DNA from: a virus
Direction: 5' to 3' (one strand)
Virus record (IMG/VR): IMGVR_UViG_3300044712_001906
Location: 1 to 64,000 of that record
DNA length: 64,000 nucleotides
Shown: piece after piece, positions 2,742-16,499 of the stretch
Numbering within the stretch: the first letter of the stretch is position 1
Layout: the number at the start of each line of letters is the position of its first letter
Translations under genes and position numbers: made by a program
The notes under the pieces: generated by a model
Seen by the model: the letters and a program-made list of their open reading frames with translations, nothing else
What the model was told of the DNA's origin: nothing
Database searches by the model: none

Positions 2742-3175
2742 CTCCCGAACCCCAACGCCATGAGGCGTTCGCGCGCCTCGGTCCACCCGTCGGCCACGAA
2801 CGCGATCCACCCGTCCGCCTCGAGCTCCGCGATCCAGGCCTTCTGCTCGGCCGACGTCCGTCCGCCCTTCTCGCGCTTGAGCTCGACGGCGACGCCGCGG
2901 GCCTCCGGAGCGCGCGGGGCACGGCGCGTGATGATGATGTCCGGCACGCCAGGCTTGACCCCGAGCGCCTTCATGATCGCGGCCGTGGCCTTTCTGCGCC
3001 AGCCGCCGTTGGGGACGTGGAACCAGCCATAGTGCCCGAGCGCCGTGAAGAGCCAGCGGCACAGCCAGCGCTGCTGGTCGTCCTCGCTCGGCTCCGCGTT
3101 CGGCTTGGCGTGCAAACGCGGTGCGTTGCGCGACCTGCCGTTGCCACGGCTCCCGAGTGACGCAAGCCAGGTCAT
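2738..3175 (-). CDS. VRR-NUC domain nuclease (PD-(D/E)xK)
   Basis: FHVPNGG...GVKPGVPD...VELK...SAEQKAW motifs. Confidence 0.9.
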   Translation of the reverse strand: MTWLASLGSRGNGRSRNAPRLHAKPNAEPSEDDQQRWLCRWLFTALGHYGWFHVPNGGWRRKATAAIMKALGVKPGVPDIIITRRAPRAPEARGVAVELKREKGGRTSAEQKAWIAELEADGWIAFVADGWTEARERLMALGFGR

Positions 3176-3711
3176 CGCCGCGACTCCGCAAGGTGCACCG
3201 GTCGGCGGTCGTTGACGACGCGACGAAGAGTGACGCGGATGGACTCGACCTTCACGGCCACCGAGGCAAGCTCATCGAGGAGCGACTGGGCTTCGCAAGC
3301 GTCGATGGATCCGTCGGCCGCCGCGCGGGCCAATGCGCCGTCGAAGGCGCCGATCGTCGCGTGCAGCTCGAGGGCGCCGACGATGATCGTGCCGTCCTCG
3401 GCGGGGTGCTGCGGGGAGACGTCGTAGCCGCAGAAGCCGACGAGTTCGCGCAGGAAGCGCTCGCCGCCCTCCGGGCCGAGCGCGCGTACGATGTCGGGGA
3501 GGCAGCTCGCCGGGAGGTGCGGAGGGTAGTCGCCTGGCCTCGGGTGGAGCATCCGCGACACCCAGGTCTCCGAACGGCGGATCGCTGCGGCCAGGACGTA
3601 CTGGTGAGACTCGCCCCGCAGCTCGTGCCCGAGAAGGGTCTCAGCGAGACGCGGAAAGGGCGCGCTGTCGTTCTTGCTACATCCATGGCGGGCGTTGGTC
3701 GCACCGTTCAC
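3172..3711 (-). CDS. CII-like phage regulatory protein
   Basis: N-terminal HTH plus C-terminal AAADGSIDACEA motif; directly downstream of cro. Confidence 0.65.
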   Translation of the reverse strand: MNGATNARHGCSKNDSAPFPRLAETLLGHELRGESHQYVLAAAIRRSETWVSRMLHPRPGDYPPHLPASCLPDIVRALGPEGGERFLRELVGFCGYDVSPQHPAEDGTIIVGALELHATIGAFDGALARAAADGSIDACEAQSLLDELASVAVKVESIRVTLRRVVNDRRPVHLAESRR

Positions 3712-3953
3712 GGAGCGGGCTCCGGTGCCGGGGCCGCGGGGGTGCGCCGATGGTCAGCGTCCTCGAACTCGCGGATCGTCCCCGCCGCGTCGAAGTCCGG
3801 GATCGCTCGCGCACAGCGGGCAAGCAGGCCGGCAGACGGAAGACGGCGGCCGTCGCGCAGCAAGATGCCGGTGACGCGGTGGATCCCGAGGAGACGGGCC
3901 TTCTCGGGCATCTTGGGTTCGGGGGCGCTGAGCCACGCTCGGAGGGTCGTCAT
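3708..3953 (-). CDS. cro: Cro-like HTH repressor
   Basis: 81 aa HTH (EKARLLGIHRVTGILLRDGRRLPS) divergent from CI. Confidence 0.7.
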   Translation of the reverse strand: MTTLRAWLSAPEPKMPEKARLLGIHRVTGILLRDGRRLPSAGLLARCARAIPDFDAAGTIREFEDADHRRTPAAPAPEPAP

Positions 3954-3960
3954 GGGGATC

Positions 3961-4014
3961 TAGGTAGCATGGAGCTGCCTGCGGAGTCAAGGCCTGCCTG
4001 TAGCTGCCAGGTAC
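3961..4014. promoter_or_regulatory. cro promoter (- strand TTGACT-N18-TACCTA) with two operators GTAGC-N5-GCTGC (3964-3978) and GTAGC-N5-GGTAC (4000-4014)
   Basis: Palindromic motif shared with sites at 7156 and 7184; lies in the cI/cro intergenic region. Confidence 0.7.
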
Positions 4015-4055
4015 AGGCCTTGCGCCATGCGCCCGACCGACCCTATTGGGTGATC

Positions 4056-4742
4056 ATGTCGATGGGTCAACGACTCAGGGCCGCGCGGGACAGGCTGGGT
4101 CTGACGGCGGCGCAGGTGGCGTCAGCAATGGGTGTGAGCCGTCCGTTCTTGACGCAGATCGAGAACGACGAGGACCGCGTGCTGGGCACCGAAAACCTCG
4201 CGAAGGCCGCCGACGTCCTCGGCGTCTCGACCGACTACCTCCTCGGCCGCGCCACCGAGGAGACCTCCTCGAGCTCGGCGAGCACGAGCATCCCGCTCAC
4301 CGGCGAGGTGACCGCTCGCGGGACCGTGAAGAGTGAAGCGCTGGTGCACAACCGAGGCGGGCTACCGCGCGCGGCAGCGGACGCCTTCACCTACCCGGAG
4401 CGCATCCAAGTCGCAGGCGCTGGCCCGCGTTGGTACGCCGTGACGAGCGCCATTGACGCGCGGAGCACGCCGCTCGGAGACCTTCGCGTCGGCGACATCC
4501 TCGTGCTCGACCCGACGAGGCCGCCCAAGGTCGGTGACCTCGTCGTCGGCAGCTGGTCCATCGAGGAAACCGAGCAGGTCGACCGCCGGTTGACCCGTCT
4601 CCGCCGCATCCGCGAGGTCGAGGGCGTCCTCGAACTCGTGCCCGTCGCCGAGGACGACCCCTCGGGGATCCTGCGCATCGGCAGCCCGGGCGTCGAGGTC
4701 CTCGCCGTGGTCGTGGAGCTCCGGCGCAAGGCGCAGACGTGA
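4056..4742 (+). CDS. cI: CI-like repressor: XRE HTH plus degenerate S24-like C-terminal domain
   Basis: MGQRLRAARDRLGLTAAQVASAMGVSRPFLTQIEND HTH; IPLTGEVTARG and GDILVLDP...GDLVV S24-like segments. Confidence 0.85.
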   Translation: MSMGQRLRAARDRLGLTAAQVASAMGVSRPFLTQIENDEDRVLGTENLAKAADVLGVSTDYLLGRATEETSSSSASTSIPLTGEVTARGTVKSEALVHNRGGLPRAAADAFTYPERIQVAGAGPRWYAVTSAIDARSTPLGDLRVGDILVLDPTRPPKVGDLVVGSWSIEETEQVDRRLTRLRRIREVEGVLELVPVAEDDPSGILRIGSPGVEVLAVVVELRRKAQT

Positions 4743-5311
4743 ACGACTTCGCGCGCATCGTGGTCGGGTACCATGGGTGCCGCCAATCGTTCGCGTCTGA
4801 GGTGTTGTCCGGCTCGCTCCCTCGCTCGCGATGGCCTGCGAGCGACAAGAAGTGGGACTGGCTCGGGCGAGGTATCTACTTCTGGGAGCATGACCCTGAG
4901 CGAGCGTTGCAGTGGGCGACGGAGCGGTACGGAGGCCAGGCCGATGGTCCAGATGTTGTCGGGGCCATCATCCAGCTGGGGTCGTGTCTTGACCTGTCGC
5001 GGGTCGGGCACACCAGGCTTCTTGACGTGGCGCATCGGTTCGTATCGGCCACATACGCGGGGCAAGGCCAACCGCTGCCGGTGAACAAGCCAGGCAGCAA
5101 GGGAGACAGCGAGCTCCAACGACGCGAACTCGACTGCCTTATCGTCAACGAGTGCGTCCGCGTGCTACTGCCGAAGATACAGACGATCAGGTGTCCGTTC
5201 ACTGAGGGACCCGAGGCCTATCCCGGAGCCATGTTTCGCACCAAGACGCACGTCCAGCTTGCGGTCCGAGATCCGGCTTGTATCTTGGGAGTTTTCAGGT
5301 CAACGCTATAG
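4739..5311 (+). CDS. Putative ADP-ribosyltransferase-fold protein (YHG / WLGxGIYFW family)
   Basis: GYHGC...DWLGRGIYFWE...KTHVQLAVR; GTGA overlap with cI. Confidence 0.6.
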   Translation: MNDFARIVVGYHGCRQSFASEVLSGSLPRSRWPASDKKWDWLGRGIYFWEHDPERALQWATERYGGQADGPDVVGAIIQLGSCLDLSRVGHTRLLDVAHRFVSATYAGQGQPLPVNKPGSKGDSELQRRELDCLIVNECVRVLLPKIQTIRCPFTEGPEAYPGAMFRTKTHVQLAVRDPACILGVFRSTL

Positions 5312-5332
5312 TTGAAGTCGTCGGAGGCGAGC

Positions 5333-5512
5333 ATGAACAGCAAGACCGTCGAGGAGATGGCCGCGGAAAACCTCGAGAAGCTCAAGGACCTGGACCCGAA
5401 GCAGCACTGGGCCGACATGGTGAGCTCTGGCCTGATCGATGAAGACGGCCGCGTGGTCTGCCGAGAGCCGGCAGAAGTCCGGACGGGCCGCGACGGTGCG
5501 CGCTTCGACTGA
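5333..5512 (+). CDS. Small protein, possible partner/antitoxin of the ART-like gene
   Basis: 59 aa, GGAGG RBS; ...MVSSGLIDEDG. Confidence 0.55.
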   Translation: MNSKTVEEMAAENLEKLKDLDPKQHWADMVSSGLIDEDGRVVCREPAEVRTGRDGARFD

Positions 5513-5529
5513 CCACCATGGCGTCAGGG

Positions 5530-5569
5530 TACTGAACGCTTGATCAGTATATCGCTCCCGATCTATCCT
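5530..5569 (+). promoter_or_regulatory. LexA/SOS-box-like palindrome TACTGA-N8-TCAGTA overlapping a promoter TTGATC-N18-TATCCT
   Basis: Perfect 6-bp arms 5530-5549; CTG-N10-CAG core; -35 at 5540-5545 and -10 at 5564-5569, upstream of the metalloprotease. Confidence 0.65.
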
Positions 5570-5597
5570 CCTGGCCTGGTCGGCTTCGGAGGGGTTC

Positions 5598-6179
5598 GTG
5601 GGGCAGGGGACGCTGCGGGACCGCTTCTGCGCGCTGCAGGCAAGGGGCGGCGTCGACCTCGAGGCTGACGCGTCCCGGGTGCGCGCCGAGATCTGCGACC
5701 CCACCGAGGCGTTGCCCGCCGCTGCCCTGGCGACGGCCCGCAGGATCGGCCCCGTCGTGTGGCGCCTCCAGGTCGCCGAAGAGCTACCCGAGTCGGTGTG
5801 GGCGGTGACCTACGCGGCCGGCCTGGGCGGGCTTGTGACTTCGGTCTGCGAGACGGCCTGGAGGGAGCTCATCGCCGACGTGCCTCGGAGCAGGTTCAGC
5901 CTCGCCCACGAGCTCGCCCACGTGCACCTGCATCACGAGGAGATCCTCGAGGTCGGCTACCTGCCGCACACCGCGCCCGGGGACGAGACCGCGGGGCTGC
6001 CCGAGGCCTGGGACACCGAGCGCCAGGCGAACCGATGGGCGGGCGCTCTCCTGGTCCCTGCTGTCGGTCTCGAGCGCCTGGCGGGGATCGGGCTCCTGAC
6101 CGTCGCCGAGGTCGCCAGGCGCTACCAGGTTGCCGAGAGGGTGGCGGAGCGGAGGATCGGGGAGGTCTGCTACGGGTAG
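5598..6179 (+). CDS. ImmA/IrrE-family zinc metallopeptidase
   Basis: RFSLAHELAH (HExxH) and ERQANRWAGALLVP motifs, C-terminal HTH-like segment. Confidence 0.9.
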   Translation: MGQGTLRDRFCALQARGGVDLEADASRVRAEICDPTEALPAAALATARRIGPVVWRLQVAEELPESVWAVTYAAGLGGLVTSVCETAWRELIADVPRSRFSLAHELAHVHLHHEEILEVGYLPHTAPGDETAGLPEAWDTERQANRWAGALLVPAVGLERLAGIGLLTVAEVARRYQVAERVAERRIGEVCYG

Positions 6180-6727
6180 CAGCAGCGCTTGGCCTTCTTC
6201 CCGCTGCCGCACGGGCACAGCGCGTTGCGGGCTGGATGTCCCGGCGAGGGCGACTTCGCCGGGATCGCTTGCACCTGCTGGACGAAGTCGATCGGTCCCG
6301 CCGACGGCATCTGAAACGAGAAGACGGTCTTGCCGTTGTCGCTCGACACCGCCAGGTCGCCCAGGCCGATGATGTCCATGCCGACCAGGACGTCGCATCC
6401 GACGATGCTTCCGGTCGTGACGAGAAGCGACGGGAACCCAACACCGTGCGGGAAAGCCATGCTCACCACGTGGGTGCTGCACGTCCTTGGACCGTTCGCA
6501 GTCTGACTTACGGCCTGGCCAACTGGTGGGCATCCGAGCTGTGCGGCGAGGCGGTCGCTGATGACCGTGTTGGTCGCTCCCGTGTCCCAAACGCCGTCGA
6601 CCTCGATGGCCGCCGGCGGCGGCTGCGTTGCCGGGTCGAACGGCAGGCCAACCTTGACCTTGGTGACAAGGACGTTGCGGCGGCCGCTGTGTCGAACGGT
6701 GAAGCTACGCGATGCCGGCGGGCTCAA
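6170..6727 (-). CDS. Retropepsin-like aspartic protease with C-terminal SEC-C motif
   Basis: WDTGATNTVIS, DVLVGMDII, RNALCPCGSGKKAKRCC. Confidence 0.88.
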   Translation of the reverse strand: MSPPASRSFTVRHSGRRNVLVTKVKVGLPFDPATQPPPAAIEVDGVWDTGATNTVISDRLAAQLGCPPVGQAVSQTANGPRTCSTHVVSMAFPHGVGFPSLLVTTGSIVGCDVLVGMDIIGLGDLAVSSDNGKTVFSFQMPSAGPIDFVQQVQAIPAKSPSPGHPARNALCPCGSGKKAKRCCYP

Positions 6728-7155: not shown

Positions 7156-7207
7156 GTAGCTGGCCGCTACTTTTCTTGTTGACATAGCCACGGGCTACAT
7201 GCACACT
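7156..7207 (+). promoter_or_regulatory. Early (PL-like) promoter TTGACA-N17-CACACT with operators GTAGC-N5-GCTAC (7156-7170) and ATAGC-N5-GCTAC (7184-7198)
   Basis: Consensus -35 at 7179-7184; second operator sits between -35 and -10. Confidence 0.75.
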
Positions 7208-7250: not shown

Positions 7251-7475
7251 ATGCCCAGCACCCCGACCACCGCGCAGCTCGTCGCGGGCCTCCACGGCTC
7301 CGACCTGGCGCGCAGCATCCGAGCTCCGCGCCGCGCTGACCTGCGCTCGGCCCTCGCCGAAGCCGCCTCCATCTTCCAGGACCACCTCGACCATCCGGGC
7401 CAGTACCCGCTGCTCCATGCGAGCACGCGCGTCGCCGCTGGATGCTTCGGGCCGGCGTTCGGGGGTGCGCGGTGA
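7251..7475 (+). CDS. Hypothetical early protein
   Basis: GGGAG RBS; first ORF after the promoter. Confidence 0.6.
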   Translation: MPSTPTTAQLVAGLHGSDLARSIRAPRRADLRSALAEAASIFQDHLDHPGQYPLLHASTRVAAGCFGPAFGGAR

Positions 7476-9260: not shown

Positions 9261-10966
9261 ACGCGCCCTCCGTCAGCACGCGCTCGATGATCTCCGAGGT
9301 CACCATTGAGGGCCTCGGACCGACCGAGGCTGCCGTGCTCCAGCTCGGCCAGTCCGATCTGATGGTCGTCTCGGGTGAGAGCGAGTGCGGCAAGTCGACG
9401 CTCCTCGAGGCGATCTGTTTCTGCCTCTGGGGCCGCTCCTCCGACGGCTCGGCCTTCCCAGTCGAGGCCGTGCGCGACGGGTGGGAAGCGGCGACCGTCA
9501 TCGTGCGCACCGCCAAGGGCACCGAGTTCAAGCGCGTGCTCTCGAGGAGCCGCGCCATCACCCGCGAGTGCCAGAAGGGCGGCGAGACGCACCGCCCGAC
9601 CCGCGAGGACGACTGGCGCGCACTCCTCGGCCCGCTGTCAGACGACGTGCTCGGCCGCGCGATCCTCGTGCCGTTCGCGTGGCAGGCGCTGGCAAACGGG
9701 CCGGGCGGAGGGCGACCGCTGCGCGACCTCCTCGCTCGGCTGCTCCCTCCGGTCGACCTCCGAGCGATCGTGGCCGAGCAGGTCGAGGTCCACGACGGCG
9801 ACAGCGTCGACGAGAAAGGCGTGTCGGCCCAGCGCGCCGAGGAGCGAAAGCACGCCGAGCAGTGCCGCGGCAAGGTGAGCCACCTGCGCGGCGAGCGTGA
9901 CGCCGCCGCGTGCGCGGTGCCTGTCGGCCCGTCCCACGCCGAGGTCGACGAGGCGCGGACGCTTCTCGCGGTCGCCGAGGCATGGCGCGAGCACGATGCC
10001 GCGAAGAAGCTCGGCGCCGCCGCCGAGCGCTGGGACGCGCAGCTCGCCGCGCTCGGACCCGAGACGCCCGAGCCGCCGGTCGCGTCGCCCGCTGAGGCGG
10101 ACGCAGCACACCGGGCCTTCGAGGCGTCGGGCATCCGGCTGGCCGCGGCCGAGACCGCGCTGCAGCGCGCCAGCAAGGCCTTCGACAAGGCGCAGGCAGG
10201 GACGTGCCACGCCTGCGGCCAGTCGCTCCCCGAGGGTGCGATCGGGGCCGCAGCCGACGCGCTCCGCGCTGCCGAGCTCGCGGTCGCGTCCGCCAAGGAA
10301 GCCCACGGCGCCGCCGGTGACGCCCGCACCCGCACGCGCCTCGCCTATGAGGCCGCGTGCGTGACCTCGCGAGCGTGGGCTGACACCGCCCGCCGCCGCA
10401 AGTCGCTCGGGCAGCGCCCCGAGGCGCCCGCGGTGGTCGAGCCGGACCTGCCGCAGCCGACGGCCGCCCAGGTCGCGGCGGCGAAGGCGACGATCTCCGA
10501 CGCGGAGCGGGCGGTCGGCGCCGCCGGCGAGCAGGACCGCCGCCGCGCTCGGGTGGCGGAGCAACTCGCGCAGGCGGAGCGCGACCTCTCCGACTCCGAG
10601 GGCGAGCTGCGCCGCCTCGAGCTGCTCCTCGACGCGGTTCGCCGCGCGCCGTCGGTCGCAGCCAGACGCCAGCTCGACGCGATCGGCGACCTTGGCCCCG
10701 TGCGCATCGAGTTCCCCGAGGGGGACAAGGCGGACGCCATCCGCGTGCTCCTCGACGGCCGCCCCTGGTGGCTTGCGTCAACTGGCCGGCAGATCGTCGG
10801 CGACGTGTGGCTTCGTGCCTGCATCCGGCGCCTCGCGCGCTGGCCGTGGATGCCGATCGTCGTCGACCGCGTGCAGGACGTGGCCGGGCAGGACGTGCCG
10901 GAGTGCCGGCCGGCGATCTGGCTGCGCACGTGCGAGGGGCCTCTGACGGTGGAGGACATGCCATGA
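9257..10966 (+). CDS. Rad50/SbcC-like coiled-coil ABC ATPase
   Basis: Walker A GESECGKST, central CHAC zinc hook, coiled coils, LASTG signature-like motif, IVVD Walker B. Confidence 0.8.
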   Translation: MNAPSVSTRSMISEVTIEGLGPTEAAVLQLGQSDLMVVSGESECGKSTLLEAICFCLWGRSSDGSAFPVEAVRDGWEAATVIVRTAKGTEFKRVLSRSRAITRECQKGGETHRPTREDDWRALLGPLSDDVLGRAILVPFAWQALANGPGGGRPLRDLLARLLPPVDLRAIVAEQVEVHDGDSVDEKGVSAQRAEERKHAEQCRGKVSHLRGERDAAACAVPVGPSHAEVDEARTLLAVAEAWREHDAAKKLGAAAERWDAQLAALGPETPEPPVASPAEADAAHRAFEASGIRLAAAETALQRASKAFDKAQAGTCHACGQSLPEGAIGAAADALRAAELAVASAKEAHGAAGDARTRTRLAYEAACVTSRAWADTARRRKSLGQRPEAPAVVEPDLPQPTAAQVAAAKATISDAERAVGAAGEQDRRRARVAEQLAQAERDLSDSEGELRRLELLLDAVRRAPSVAARRQLDAIGDLGPVRIEFPEGDKADAIRVLLDGRPWWLASTGRQIVGDVWLRACIRRLARWPWMPIVVDRVQDVAGQDVPECRPAIWLRTCEGPLTVEDMP

Positions 10967-11250
10967 CCAACGCCCGCAACATCAAGTGCGGCTGCATCGG
11001 CGGATGCGGGTGCACGTGGCGGATGGCGCGGGAGTGGATCCGCCGCGCGCGCGCCTCCTACCTGACCTGCCCGAGCTGCCACGGGCTCGCTCGGGAGGGT
11101 GAGCCGGCCAAGACGATCGACCCGCAGACGAAGGCGCTCATCGGGCGGATCTGCGAGCGCGTGGCGGAGGACTGCGCGCGGCTCCTCAATCCGGACCGGC
11201 AGGCGGAGCGTGACGCGCTGAGGGCGCGGTTCATGGGGGTGAGGGCGTGA
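10963..11250 (+). CDS. Small Cys-rich (zinc-binding) protein
   Basis: CGCIGGCGC and CPSC; ATGA overlap. Confidence 0.6.
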   Translation: MTNARNIKCGCIGGCGCTWRMAREWIRRARASYLTCPSCHGLAREGEPAKTIDPQTKALIGRICERVAEDCARLLNPDRQAERDALRARFMGVRA

Positions 11251-11813
11251 AGCCTTCGCTGCTCACCATCATCGAGCCCGTCCTCGAGAGCGGTCCGATC
11301 CTCGCGTGGTACCTGCGTGCCGAAGCTGGCAGACGGAGCCACTCCGTCATGCTGACCTTCGGGCCAGAGGGGACCACGATCGCGGGCGACCTCGTCAGCA
11401 CGGGCTGGACGTACCGCGGCGGAAGCCTCCGATGGTTCGCCGCCGACATGGCTCCGAGCTACCTCGCGGGGAAGTTCCTGCCCCGGGTCTGGTCGAAGAA
11501 GGCCGCCGAGGACTACTGCGCCGACCTGCTGGGCCGTCAGGGCGAAGATGCGTTGCCGTATGACGCCCGGATGGCCCTCGAGGATGCCAAGGCGGATGGC
11601 GACTGGTCAGAAGTGGCATGGGTGCCCGTTGCGACGGCCCTTCGAGACATCGGCTTCGACTGCGAGGAAGTGGCTCCGTCGTACCGACCGGACGAGTGCG
11701 ACTCGGAGACGCTCGCCGCGATCCATGGAGCGTTCAGGTGCCTCTTCTGGGAGCGGTGGGCGAGCATCGACGCGGCGGGGCAGCCGAGCAGGCGCATCGG
11801 GGGTGTGGCATGA
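11247..11813 (+). CDS. Hypothetical phage protein
   Basis: 188 aa, IAGDL...SYLAGK; coupled overlaps. Confidence 0.7.
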   Translation: MKPSLLTIIEPVLESGPILAWYLRAEAGRRSHSVMLTFGPEGTTIAGDLVSTGWTYRGGSLRWFAADMAPSYLAGKFLPRVWSKKAAEDYCADLLGRQGEDALPYDARMALEDAKADGDWSEVAWVPVATALRDIGFDCEEVAPSYRPDECDSETLAAIHGAFRCLFWERWASIDAAGQPSRRIGGVA

Positions 11814-12208
11814 ACCTCGGCGAGAACGTGAAGCGCCTGCGGGAGCGGGCGGGGATGACGCAGACTGACCTGTCGAAGCGCTCAGGGCTCGACCGAGCGC
11901 ACATCTCGAAGATTGAGTCCGGCGATCGCGGAGCGTCCGTGCTCGCGCTCATCGCCCTCGCCGACATCTTCGACGTCTCCCTCGACGAGCTCGTCGGCCG
12001 CACCCACGTCCCCGTCCGCCATGCCGTTGTCACGCTCGAGGGGGTGGTGACGAGCGTTGGCACGTTCGACCGCGCGAAGGCCCCCGGCATGGAGCTCGAC
12101 ACCGCCGAGGGGAGCTTGACGCTGGATCTGCCAGAGGACTCGGTCCGAGCCATCGCGACGCAGCTCTACCGGCGCGTGCGGCTCACGGTGGAGGTGCTCG
12201 ATGGCTGA
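11810..12208 (+). CDS. XRE-family HTH transcriptional regulator
   Basis: MNLGENVKRLRERAGMTQTDLSKRSGLDRAHISKIESG...LADIFDVSLDELVG. Confidence 0.9.
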   Translation: MNLGENVKRLRERAGMTQTDLSKRSGLDRAHISKIESGDRGASVLALIALADIFDVSLDELVGRTHVPVRHAVVTLEGVVTSVGTFDRAKAPGMELDTAEGSLTLDLPEDSVRAIATQLYRRVRLTVEVLDG

Positions 12209-15232: not shown

Positions 15233-15627
15233 CCCCGGCCTATCTCACCCACCGCGAGGCGTGCGAGCACCTCCGCGTCCACCCGGAGACGCTCAAGGCC
15301 CGCATGGCCGTGACCCCCGAGCACGTCGCGCGCGCCTGGGTTGACTTCTCCGCCGGCGGGCGACCACGCTACCGCTGGCTCGCGTCCGAGATCGATCGCT
15401 GGTGGGCGGAGGTGTGCGCATGGCTACGATCGAGCAACGGGGCAGCACGTGGCGCGTCCGGTGGCGCGATCCAGACGGGCGGCAGAGGTCGCGGGCGTGC
15501 CCAGACCACCGGACCGCGAAACGGCTCGCCCTCGACGTCGCGGGCGAGGTCGCGGAGGGCCGACGGTGGTCCCCTCGCGACGCGGCGCCGGTCCCGCTCC
15601 TCGTCGACGTCCTCGACGCCTACCTGA
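15229..15627 (+). CDS. xis: Excisionase-like HTH protein
   Basis: YLTHREACEHLRVHPETL...GRPRYRW; immediately upstream of and overlapping int. Confidence 0.7.
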   Translation: MTPAYLTHREACEHLRVHPETLKARMAVTPEHVARAWVDFSAGGRPRYRWLASEIDRWWAEVCAWLRSSNGAARGASGGAIQTGGRGRGRAQTTGPRNGSPSTSRARSRRADGGPLATRRRSRSSSTSSTPT

Positions 15628-16499
15628 CCGACGTGCGCCGACTGCGCTCGGCCGGCACAGCGCGCGTCTACGAGAGCCGCCTCGACGGCTTCCTACTCTG
15701 GGCGGGCGAGGACGCGACGGTCGACGCCCTCTCGCGCCAGCTCCTCGCCGACTATTACGCGAGCCTCGCCCCCGGCCTCGCCACCCGCAGGCAGCTCGTG
15801 GCCGCGGTCGAGCGGGCGTGGCGCTGGGCGGCCGAGTCCGACGCCTACTGCGACGACGTGCCTCGCCCACGCCACCTCGAGGTGCCAGCGCCGCCCGGGC
15901 GCCCGACCGTGGCGCCCACGTGGGCCGAGGTCGACGCGGTCATCGCCCATGCGAAGGGAGAGCCCCACCGGCGGCTCCTCGCACTGCTCCGCTGCACTGG
16001 GCTTCGCGTCCACCAGGCGCTCGGCCTCGCCTGGTCCGACGTCGACCTGGAGCGCGGAACGCTCCGGGTACGCGGCGAGCTCGGCAAGACCTCGGTCGAG
16101 CGTCAGGGCCGAGTCGTGCCTCTAGCCCCGGTGCTCCTCGAGGAGTTGGCCGGCTGGGGCGTGCGCGAGGGCGCGCTCGTCGCGGGCCTGAAGGACGAGC
16201 AGGCGGCGCGCCTGCGGACGGTAGCTGCGTGGCAGGCGTCAGGCCAGCGGGCCGAGCTCTGGCAGAGACGCCCGCACCACGCCTTCCGTCGGGCCTTCGT
16301 GACTGGACTACGCCGCGCGGGGGCTGACCCGGACGCCGTCGAGGTCCTGGTCGGCCACTCGCTCGGGCTCCGCGGGGTCTACACGGACCCGGAGGCGCTC
16401 GGTCTGCGAGATGTCGTGGCCCTCGTGCCGAAGATCGTGTCGGGGGTCGTCTCGATTGGCTCCCGTGTCCGTAGCGTGTCCGCGCGAGCGAGGCGATGA
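15420..16499 (+). CDS. int: Tyrosine integrase
   Basis: N-terminal arm-binding WRVRWRDPDGRQRS; catalytic TGLR, GKT, HAFRR, LVGH, Y. Confidence 0.93.
   Translation: MATIEQRGSTWRVRWRDPDGRQRSRACPDHRTAKRLALDVAGEVAEGRRWSPRDAAPVPLLVDVLDAYLTDVRRLRSAGTARVYESRLDGFLLWAGEDATVDALSRQLLADYYASLAPGLATRRQLVAAVERAWRWAAESDAYCDDVPRPRHLEVPAPPGRPTVAPTWAEVDAVIAHAKGEPHRRLLALLRCTGLRVHQALGLAWSDVDLERGTLRVRGELGKTSVERQGRVVPLAPVLLEELAGWGVREGALVAGLKDEQAARLRTVAAWQASGQRAELWQRRPHHAFRRAFVTGLRRAGADPDAVEVLVGHSLGLRGVYTDPEALGLRDVVALVPKIVSGVVSIGSRVRSVSARARR

Follow-up and report, generated by a model that had tools for sequence, protein, structure and literature searches.

The window analysed here, a stretch of 64,000 nt, is the first 64 kb of the 77,882-bp IMG/VR virus record IMGVR_UViG_3300044712_001906, which has a GC content of 70%. 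It contains the lysogeny switch (immunity region) of an uncultured temperate phage from soil, in which the gene for the repressor CI is followed on the same strand, 856 bp downstream, by the gene for a protein of the M78 (COG2856) family (Table 1). A palindrome, TACTGAACGCTTGATCAGTA, occurs once in the window, at positions 5530–5549 in front of the M78 gene. The original prediction, made from the sequence alone, read this locus as a two-step induction switch, in which the SOS response of the host derepresses a protease that destroys a repressor unable to cleave itself. This reading was supported in silico by an S24 fold of CI devoid of the catalytic dyad and the scissile site, an intact M78 protein, an exceptional match of the palindrome to the LexA motif, and the recurrence of the arrangement in a genome of the Myxococcota, G134.

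The CI repressor and the M78 protein

Pfam assigned HTH_3 to residues 7–62 of CI (E = 1.5e-12), made no direct S24 call and matched nothing on the remaining ~150 residues, and the C-terminal part had no relatives in a word-based search. A HMMER pass over 1.84 billion representatives with the C-terminal 149 residues retrieved seven relatives. Four of these equal CI in length and form a subfamily with it, and P0010 and P0011 are genuine Peptidase_S24 proteins (E = 5e-18 and 2.5e-16, respectively). Alignment of the CI subfamily with Myxococcota LexA plus P0010/P0011 by hhalign gave a probability of 98.1% (E = 9e-14). The AlphaFold2 model of CI, with a predicted local distance difference test (pLDDT) score of 80, found the full-length lambda repressor (3bdn, E = 5e-7) as its best PDB match in Foldseek and also matched the lambda C-terminal domain (TM-score 0.66–0.71 on the target) and LexA, the Foldseek list comprising 3bdn, 2hnf and 1f39. 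On the strength of the hhalign result and these structural matches, the C-terminal domain of CI is, by alignment and model, a divergent S24 (LexA/lambda-cI) fold.

The seventh relative, P0006 (1977 residues), matches CI residues 138–193 in nine separate stretches; the beta-barrel portion of the S24-like fold thus appears in this protein as a tandemly repeated module.

The three replacements that had been read from the CI sequence all stood up to alignment. VTSAIDA, noted in place of the Ser motif, covers residues 129–135 and puts Asp134 in the catalytic Ser column, in which the members of the subfamily carry A/C/S/N/T. RLRR (residues 181–184), noted where the catalytic Lys is expected, belongs to a strand reading T-R-L-R-R, and no lysine is present within residues 159–224; the exact Lys column is ambiguous, as MAFFT and hhalign differ. 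TARG (residues 86–89) stands for the scissile site, since V-A-A-G of LexA aligns to V-T-A-R and Ala87-Arg88 replaces Ala-Gly. The loss of the Ser-Lys dyad together with that of the Ala-Gly bond argues strongly that CI is unable to autocleave. The subfamily has a specific conserved insert around residues 88–118, of which residues ~100–118 are conserved yet predicted to be disordered and contain a motif, A-[FL]-T-[YH]-P-[ED], common to the CI homologue of G134.

The M78 protein matched Peptidase_M78 (PF06114) with an E-value of 3.9e-13 and contains HELAH at residues 104–108, in agreement with the earlier assignment of an HExxH ImmA/IrrE gene downstream of cI. The segment further downstream reads AN-x-WA-x2-LLVP with a conserved E141, and H104, E105, H108, E141, A144, A148 and L151–P154 do not vary among the four closest homologues. 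A profile of four homologues searched against solved structures recovered CapP (7t5t, E = 1e-5) and IrrE (3dte). Foldseek with the AlphaFold2 model (pLDDT 81.5, predicted TM-score 0.79) found the XRE-COG2856 regulator of M. tuberculosis, CapP and IrrE/PprI (6cz6, 7t5t for CapP and 3dti for IrrE; probability 1.00). By its sequence and its model, the protein is an intact COG2856/M78 member with a thermolysin-like fold and complete active-site motifs, and no GAF-like or other sensor domain was found beyond the ~190-residue core. The closest homologues in the protein collection, P0002 and P0003, share 57% and 53% identity with it. Nothing was found in viral contigs searched with M78, P0002, P0003 and the CI alignment, and genome and metagenome contigs searched with the M78 alignment yielded only distant M78 domains from many phyla.

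The palindrome as a predicted LexA box of the Myxococcota type

The phylum of the host was examined before the box. The stretch itself was present only in two rhizosphere metagenome DNA runs, which are probably its source, and no RNA run was among its holders. The portal protein had good matches in 3/301 Myxococcota genomes (best 47% identity, E = 3e-132) and none in 553 genomes of three other high-GC phyla (251 Actinomycetota, 151 Gemmatimonadota and 151 Planctomycetota), and the portals of cultured phages reached 31–35% identity at most. The closest M78 and CI relatives found are also in Myxococcota genomes; the M78 protein was absent from the three portal-bearing genomes when these were searched. 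From these sequence matches we infer that the host is a member of the Myxococcota. No tRNA gene able to place the attachment site attP or the host was found. An actinobacterial host was rejected, as the portal matched 0/251 genomes and the box, by eye, poorly fits TCGAAC-N4-GTTCGA.

The palindrome matches 15/17 positions of CTRHAMRYBYGTTCAGS, which the original prediction had used as the Myxococcus LexA consensus; recomputation gave the same 15/17, and the consensus is printed as that of M. xanthus LexA (PMC9705874). We built a LexA matrix from 35 Myxococcota lexA promoters, from which the phage site was left out. A site with at least 14/17 matches to the consensus is located upstream of lexA in 28/35 Myxococcota loci, versus ~3 expected from shuffles, and expectation maximisation over the lexA promoters returned the motif CTG(T/A)nC-N4-GTTCAGTA. 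When the whole 77.9-kb phage was scanned with the matrix, the palindrome was the only clear match, with a score of 17.0 (13.4 for the opposite strand), and the next best site scored 7.9. None of 300 first-order Markov genomes reached 17.0 (maximum 16.4).

The palindrome is near-identical to the lexA operators of G076/G081. These read CTGATCGAACGTTCAGTA and the phage site reads CTGATCAAGCGTTCAGTA on the minus strand, and both half-sites of the palindrome equal those of real lexA operators. The extended form TACTGAWC-N4-GWTCAGTA, with at most one mismatch, was found in 80/301 Myxococcota genomes, versus ~8 for the reversed control, and the adjoining genes include recA, dnaE2, imuA-like, imuB and radical-SAM repair genes. 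In G231, the box beside a radical-SAM repair gene is identical to the phage site at 19/20 positions. The palindrome is thus predicted with good confidence to be a Myxococcota-type LexA box. As a sign of the host SOS regulon, the match to the LexA motif is conditional on a Myxococcota host.

The LexA sites of the phylum vary in context. High-GC Myxococcota lexA promoters are organised as TTGACA-N2-CTGnnC-N4-GTTCAG-TAnnnT, frequently with a second box downstream (loci L178–L206, L082 and L173–L176). Lower-GC lineages (e.g. L183, L180 and L202) have CTGT-N8-ACAG-like lexA boxes that resemble the E. coli type. G184 holds 26 copies of TACTGAWC-N4-GWTCAGTA, versus 0–3 in most genomes, which may point to a LexA box carried by a repeat element.

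Between the box of the phage and the GTG codon of the M78 gene lie 48 nt. The earlier reading had the box overlapping a promoter of the M78 gene's own; the box held up, and the promoter is only a weak by-eye match below the threshold of the promoter scan. The geometry differs from that of host lexA promoters, in which TTGACA is followed by two bases, the box, and a TAnnnT -10 element starting with the last TA of the box. The sole match of the promoter scan was TTGGGA-N16-TATAGT at 5285–5312, before the small open reading frame (ORF) that precedes the M78 gene, and no terminator was found in a scan of positions 3600–6400. LexA could control a weak promoter of the M78 gene itself, or it could stop transcripts that run in from the cI operon.

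Candidate operators of CI have another sequence. GTAGC-N5-GCTAC, with at most one mismatch, has six matches in the window versus 0.95 expected, and 0/100 shuffles reached six. The TTGACA promoter at the second operator pair serves the rightward early operon starting at 7251. This motif is unrelated in sequence to the palindrome at 5530. The palindrome was considered as a CI operator and rejected because the CI operator motif is a different one.

When the 301 Myxococcota genomes were searched with the M78 alignment, two close full-length relatives were found, in G134 and G115. Locus L268 of G134 (G134:C9:139000-158900) carries a cro-like gene, a dyad-less CI homologue, a LexA-like box and an M78 homologue at ~9788–11567, in a prophage-like region with primase, SSB, terminase, RusA and helicase genes. 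The XRE protein directly preceding the M78 homologue, with no accessory genes between them, comprises 265 residues and aligns with CI over its entire length at 25% identity (E = 1e-5), so that the C-terminal domain is covered as well. The Ser-Lys dyad is likewise absent, and the gene is divergent from the cro-like gene. The CI homologue and the M78 gene are separated by 95 bp, and within these lies TACTGCTCACCTGTTCACGT, which starts ~38 nt upstream of the start codon of the M78 gene. This box scored 8.9–9.5 on the matrix and is the sole match of at least 7 in 19.9 kb; the lexA operator of G134 itself scored 8.6, and ~0.001 such matches are expected in a gap of this size. A cassette of dyad-less CI, box and M78 gene is, as judged from sequence, seen twice, in otherwise different phages. 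In G115, the M78 homologue overlaps the upstream XRE gene. The CI alignment searched against the 301 Myxococcota genomes gave mostly matches to the helix-turn-helix part only and little beyond G134.

A proposed LexA-dependent route of induction and its alternatives

COG2856 proteins inactivate partner XRE repressors by cleavage (ImmA/ImmR and IrrE/DdrO) or by binding (Rir/Crh) (PMC6868357). For ICEBs1 and most COG2856/XRE pairs, the literature gives the route from DNA damage to their activation as unknown (PMC7907104, PMC5812530). In a lysogen of the phage, CI would bind the GTAGC-N5-GCTAC operators and silence both early operons, and host LexA on 5530–5549 would keep the M78 gene off or block read-through from the cI operon. 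Upon DNA damage, activated RecA would drive the autocleavage of LexA, the M78 protease would be made, and it would inactivate CI, most likely by cleavage in the insert at ~100–118 or alternatively by binding. We infer LexA binding, the use of the promoter and CI as the substrate; that LexA represses the protease gene, that SOS derepresses it and that the protease then inactivates CI has, on the sequence data, about an even chance of being correct as a whole.

In a stronger form of this proposal, the M78 protein would act in trans as the substitute for the lost dyad by cutting the CI insert at ~100–118, and LexA-controlled transcription would be the sole damage input. We offer this form only tentatively and lean against it. 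If true, this lineage would be an evolutionary intermediate between the autocleaving lambda-type and the ImmR/ImmA-type switches, and it would show concretely, for one clade, by what route damage acts on COG2856 proteases.

Several observations weigh against induction through LexA and the M78 protein. Two ORFs lie between cI and the M78 gene, and the M78 protein could have the XRE protein encoded at 11807–12205 as its true substrate. The promoter scan flagged no promoter at the box, where no strong consensus is present. The box may serve solely as a roadblock for transcripts coming from the cI operon, because the better promoter-like site at 5285–5312 lies upstream of it and the scan gave no terminator. 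No box accompanies the M78 homologue of G115, and 0/28 more distant Myxococcota M78 loci have one with a score of at least 10; a LexA box is therefore not characteristic of M78 genes as a whole. Conservation of the box upstream of M78 homologues, put forward earlier as a check, thus gave a mixed picture, with a box present in G134, absent in G115 and, at that threshold, absent from the 28 distant loci. The characterised ImmA, IrrE and CapP are moreover controlled after translation and not at transcription (PMC7907104, PMC5812530).

The last point also favours a different view of the box, in which it adds gain alone: the M78 protein would be regulated post-translationally by single-stranded DNA, zinc or RecA, or would act on the XRE protein of 11807–12205, or would control an accessory or defence unit (ORF190, retropepsin/SEC-C pair). 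The characterised COG2856 proteases are all activated post-translationally, and the best sequence match of the M78 protein among solved structures is CapP; against post-translational control stands the lack of a sensor domain beyond the core. The second XRE protein, of 133 residues, has the size of ImmR/DdrO and is a possible alternative substrate. Accessory genes flank the M78 gene in the phage, whereas the M78 homologue of G134 comes directly after the CI homologue. We regard these possibilities, taken together, as unlikely. With a real LexA box, the M78 protein might instead be a non-proteolytic antirepressor of the Rir/Crh type of phage TP-J34, which would act on CI by binding and so prevent its oligomerisation. 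Rir belongs to COG2856 and contains HExxH, and no cleavage was detected when it inactivates its repressor (PMC6868357), but its larger motif is reported to be incomplete (PMC6868357), whereas the extended signature of the M78 protein (HExxH, downstream Glu and AN-x-(F/W)A-x2-LL-x-P) does not vary among the four close homologues, and we consider a purely binding mode quite improbable.

The remaining alternative concerns the palindrome itself, which might instead bind a regulator encoded by the phage, or have arisen by chance, and be no LexA site. Its perfect 6+6 symmetry is typical for an operator of a phage, 0.19 palindrome matches with at most two mismatches are expected per window, and the host phylum that gives the LexA motif its meaning is a putative one. 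However, the palindrome is single-copy, unlike the CI operators with their different motif in four copies; its score of 17.0 was obtained on a matrix from lexA promoters of the host phylum and was reached by 0/300 random genomes; and its half-sites are those of real lexA operators. Such an origin is very unlikely. Induction through a LexA-repressed M78 gene is compared below with the known systems.

The ImmR/ImmA systems (ICEBs1 of B. subtilis, the phi105-type pairs, and MpaR of the Listeria monocin/phi10403S) likewise combine a same-strand XRE repressor and COG2856/M78 HExxH protease on a mobile element, with induction that responds to DNA damage and a protease that serves as the antirepressor, as is proposed here. 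In contrast, immA is co-transcribed with immR and its product is activated post-translationally in a RecA-dependent manner by a route that is unknown (PMC5812530, PMC6872733), whereas the protease gene here has a predicted LexA box of its own. ImmR ends in a short helical tail, whereas CI is a protein of 228 residues with an S24-fold domain, and two ORFs separate the genes in the phage. In Listeria, mitomycin C induces through MpaR only if LexA can be cleaved; mpaR is, however, co-transcribed with the repressor gene (PMC6872733). IrrE/DdrO of Deinococcus and CapP/CapH of the cyclic oligonucleotide-based antiphage signalling system (CBASS) share the M78 fold and motifs, and their XRE substrate is cleaved after DNA damage. 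IrrE and CapP differ in having extra sensor domains and zinc or single-stranded DNA switching in place of transcription, and they control chromosomal repair or defence genes rather than a prophage.

LexA-controlled antirepressors for non-cleavable repressors include Tum of coliphage 186 and AntC of N15. GfoA/GfhA of the Salmonella Gifsy phages are likewise established as such (PMC3121763). The scheme proposed for the phage shares with all of these a non-cleavable repressor, a LexA-repressed antirepressor gene and indirect SOS induction; their antirepressors are small binding proteins, whereas the phage encodes a protein of a metalloprotease family behind a LexA motif of the Myxococcota type. 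Among the precedents, PBSX of Bacillus comes nearest to a COG2856 gene under LexA control in a phage-like element: ORF2 (xkdA), beside xre, belongs to COG2856 (PMC2701414), and xkdA is tabulated under the lexA/SOS regulon, with 17.8-fold induction in B. pumilus (PMC3896406). Xre of PBSX has no S24-fold domain, and the phylum and the LexA motif differ; XkdA is compared here by its description alone. With lambda cI and LexA, CI shares the two-domain architecture and the C-terminal fold, and with lambda the divergent cro/cI layout with a cII-like gene. It differs in Asp134 for Ser, the lack of Lys in the catalytic strand, Ala-Arg for Ala-Gly, and the conserved insert at ~88–118.

The original prediction described the induction logics joined here as normally separate, which is overstated in view of the COG2856 gene xkdA, beside xre, in the LexA regulon and the well-known LexA-controlled antirepressors. 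The proposed circuit is a variant of known induction circuits and not a new kind, its novelty being lowered because the antirepressors of 186 and Gifsy and xkdA of PBSX precede it. Apart from the hints concerning PBSX xkdA, the literature search returned no paper describing a LexA box directly before a phage ImmA-like gene. A phage protease gene behind a host LexA box would offer a simple route from DNA damage to COG2856 proteases, namely transcription, and a CI with an S24 fold stripped of its own chemistry would connect the two principal groups of phage repressors that sense damage. This would be the first SOS-induction circuit predicted for phages of the Myxococcota, which are scarcely studied, and the analysis yielded a phylum-wide LexA motif for Myxococcota as a by-product.

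Neighbouring genes in the immunity region

Table 1. Coordinates of the immunity region and associated features in the window.
Feature	Position	Strand	Remarks
CII-like activator gene	3172–3711	minus	phrog_101
cro-like small gene	3708–3953	minus	divergent from cI; GC content at third codon positions (GC3) 0.83
Candidate CI operators, GTAGC-N5-GCTAC	3964–4014		two copies (3964, 4000) in the cro/cI gap
cI repressor gene	4056–4742	plus	ATG at 4056, stop at 4742; 228 residues; XRE helix-turn-helix (1–65), Ser/Thr-rich linker, predicted divergent S24-fold C-terminal domain
ORF190	4739–5311	plus	start overlaps cI stop; phrog_14664, function unknown
Small ORF, 59–66 residues	5333–5512	plus	preceded by promoter-like site 5285–5312
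Intergenic gap, 85 bp			between small ORF and M78 gene
Predicted LexA box, Myxococcota type	5530–5549		TACTGAAC-N4-GATCAGTA; lexA-promoter matrix score 17.0
Candidate sigma-70-type promoter, TTGATC-N18-TATCCT	5540–5569	plus	by eye, 8/12, weak; -35 inside box
M78 (COG2856) gene	5598–6179	plus	GTG start behind GGAGGGG; 193 residues; PF06114
Retropepsin/SEC-C gene	6170–6727	minus	convergent with M78 gene
Candidate CI operators, GTAGC-N5-GCTAC	7156–7198		two copies (7156, 7184) around TTGACA promoter
Integrase gene	15402–16499

Searches of Pfam and PHROG with the product of the cro-like gene gave no match, nor did family searches with the small ORF between ORF190 and the M78 gene. ORF190 has a GC content of 62% and a GC3 of 0.74, versus 70% and 0.88 for cI, and neither it nor the small ORF has a counterpart in the G134 cassette. 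Because of this lower GC content than that of its neighbours and the missing counterparts, ORF190, together with the small ORF, is probably a later insertion, a moron expressed from the cI operon. Beyond the M78 gene, the segment 6170–7038 encodes an aspartic protease that resembles retropepsin and has a zinc tail of the SEC-C type (PF13650, PF02810), coupled to an upstream ORF of 104 codons. The end of the retropepsin/SEC-C gene overlaps the stop codon of the M78 gene by 10 nt, in convergent orientation.

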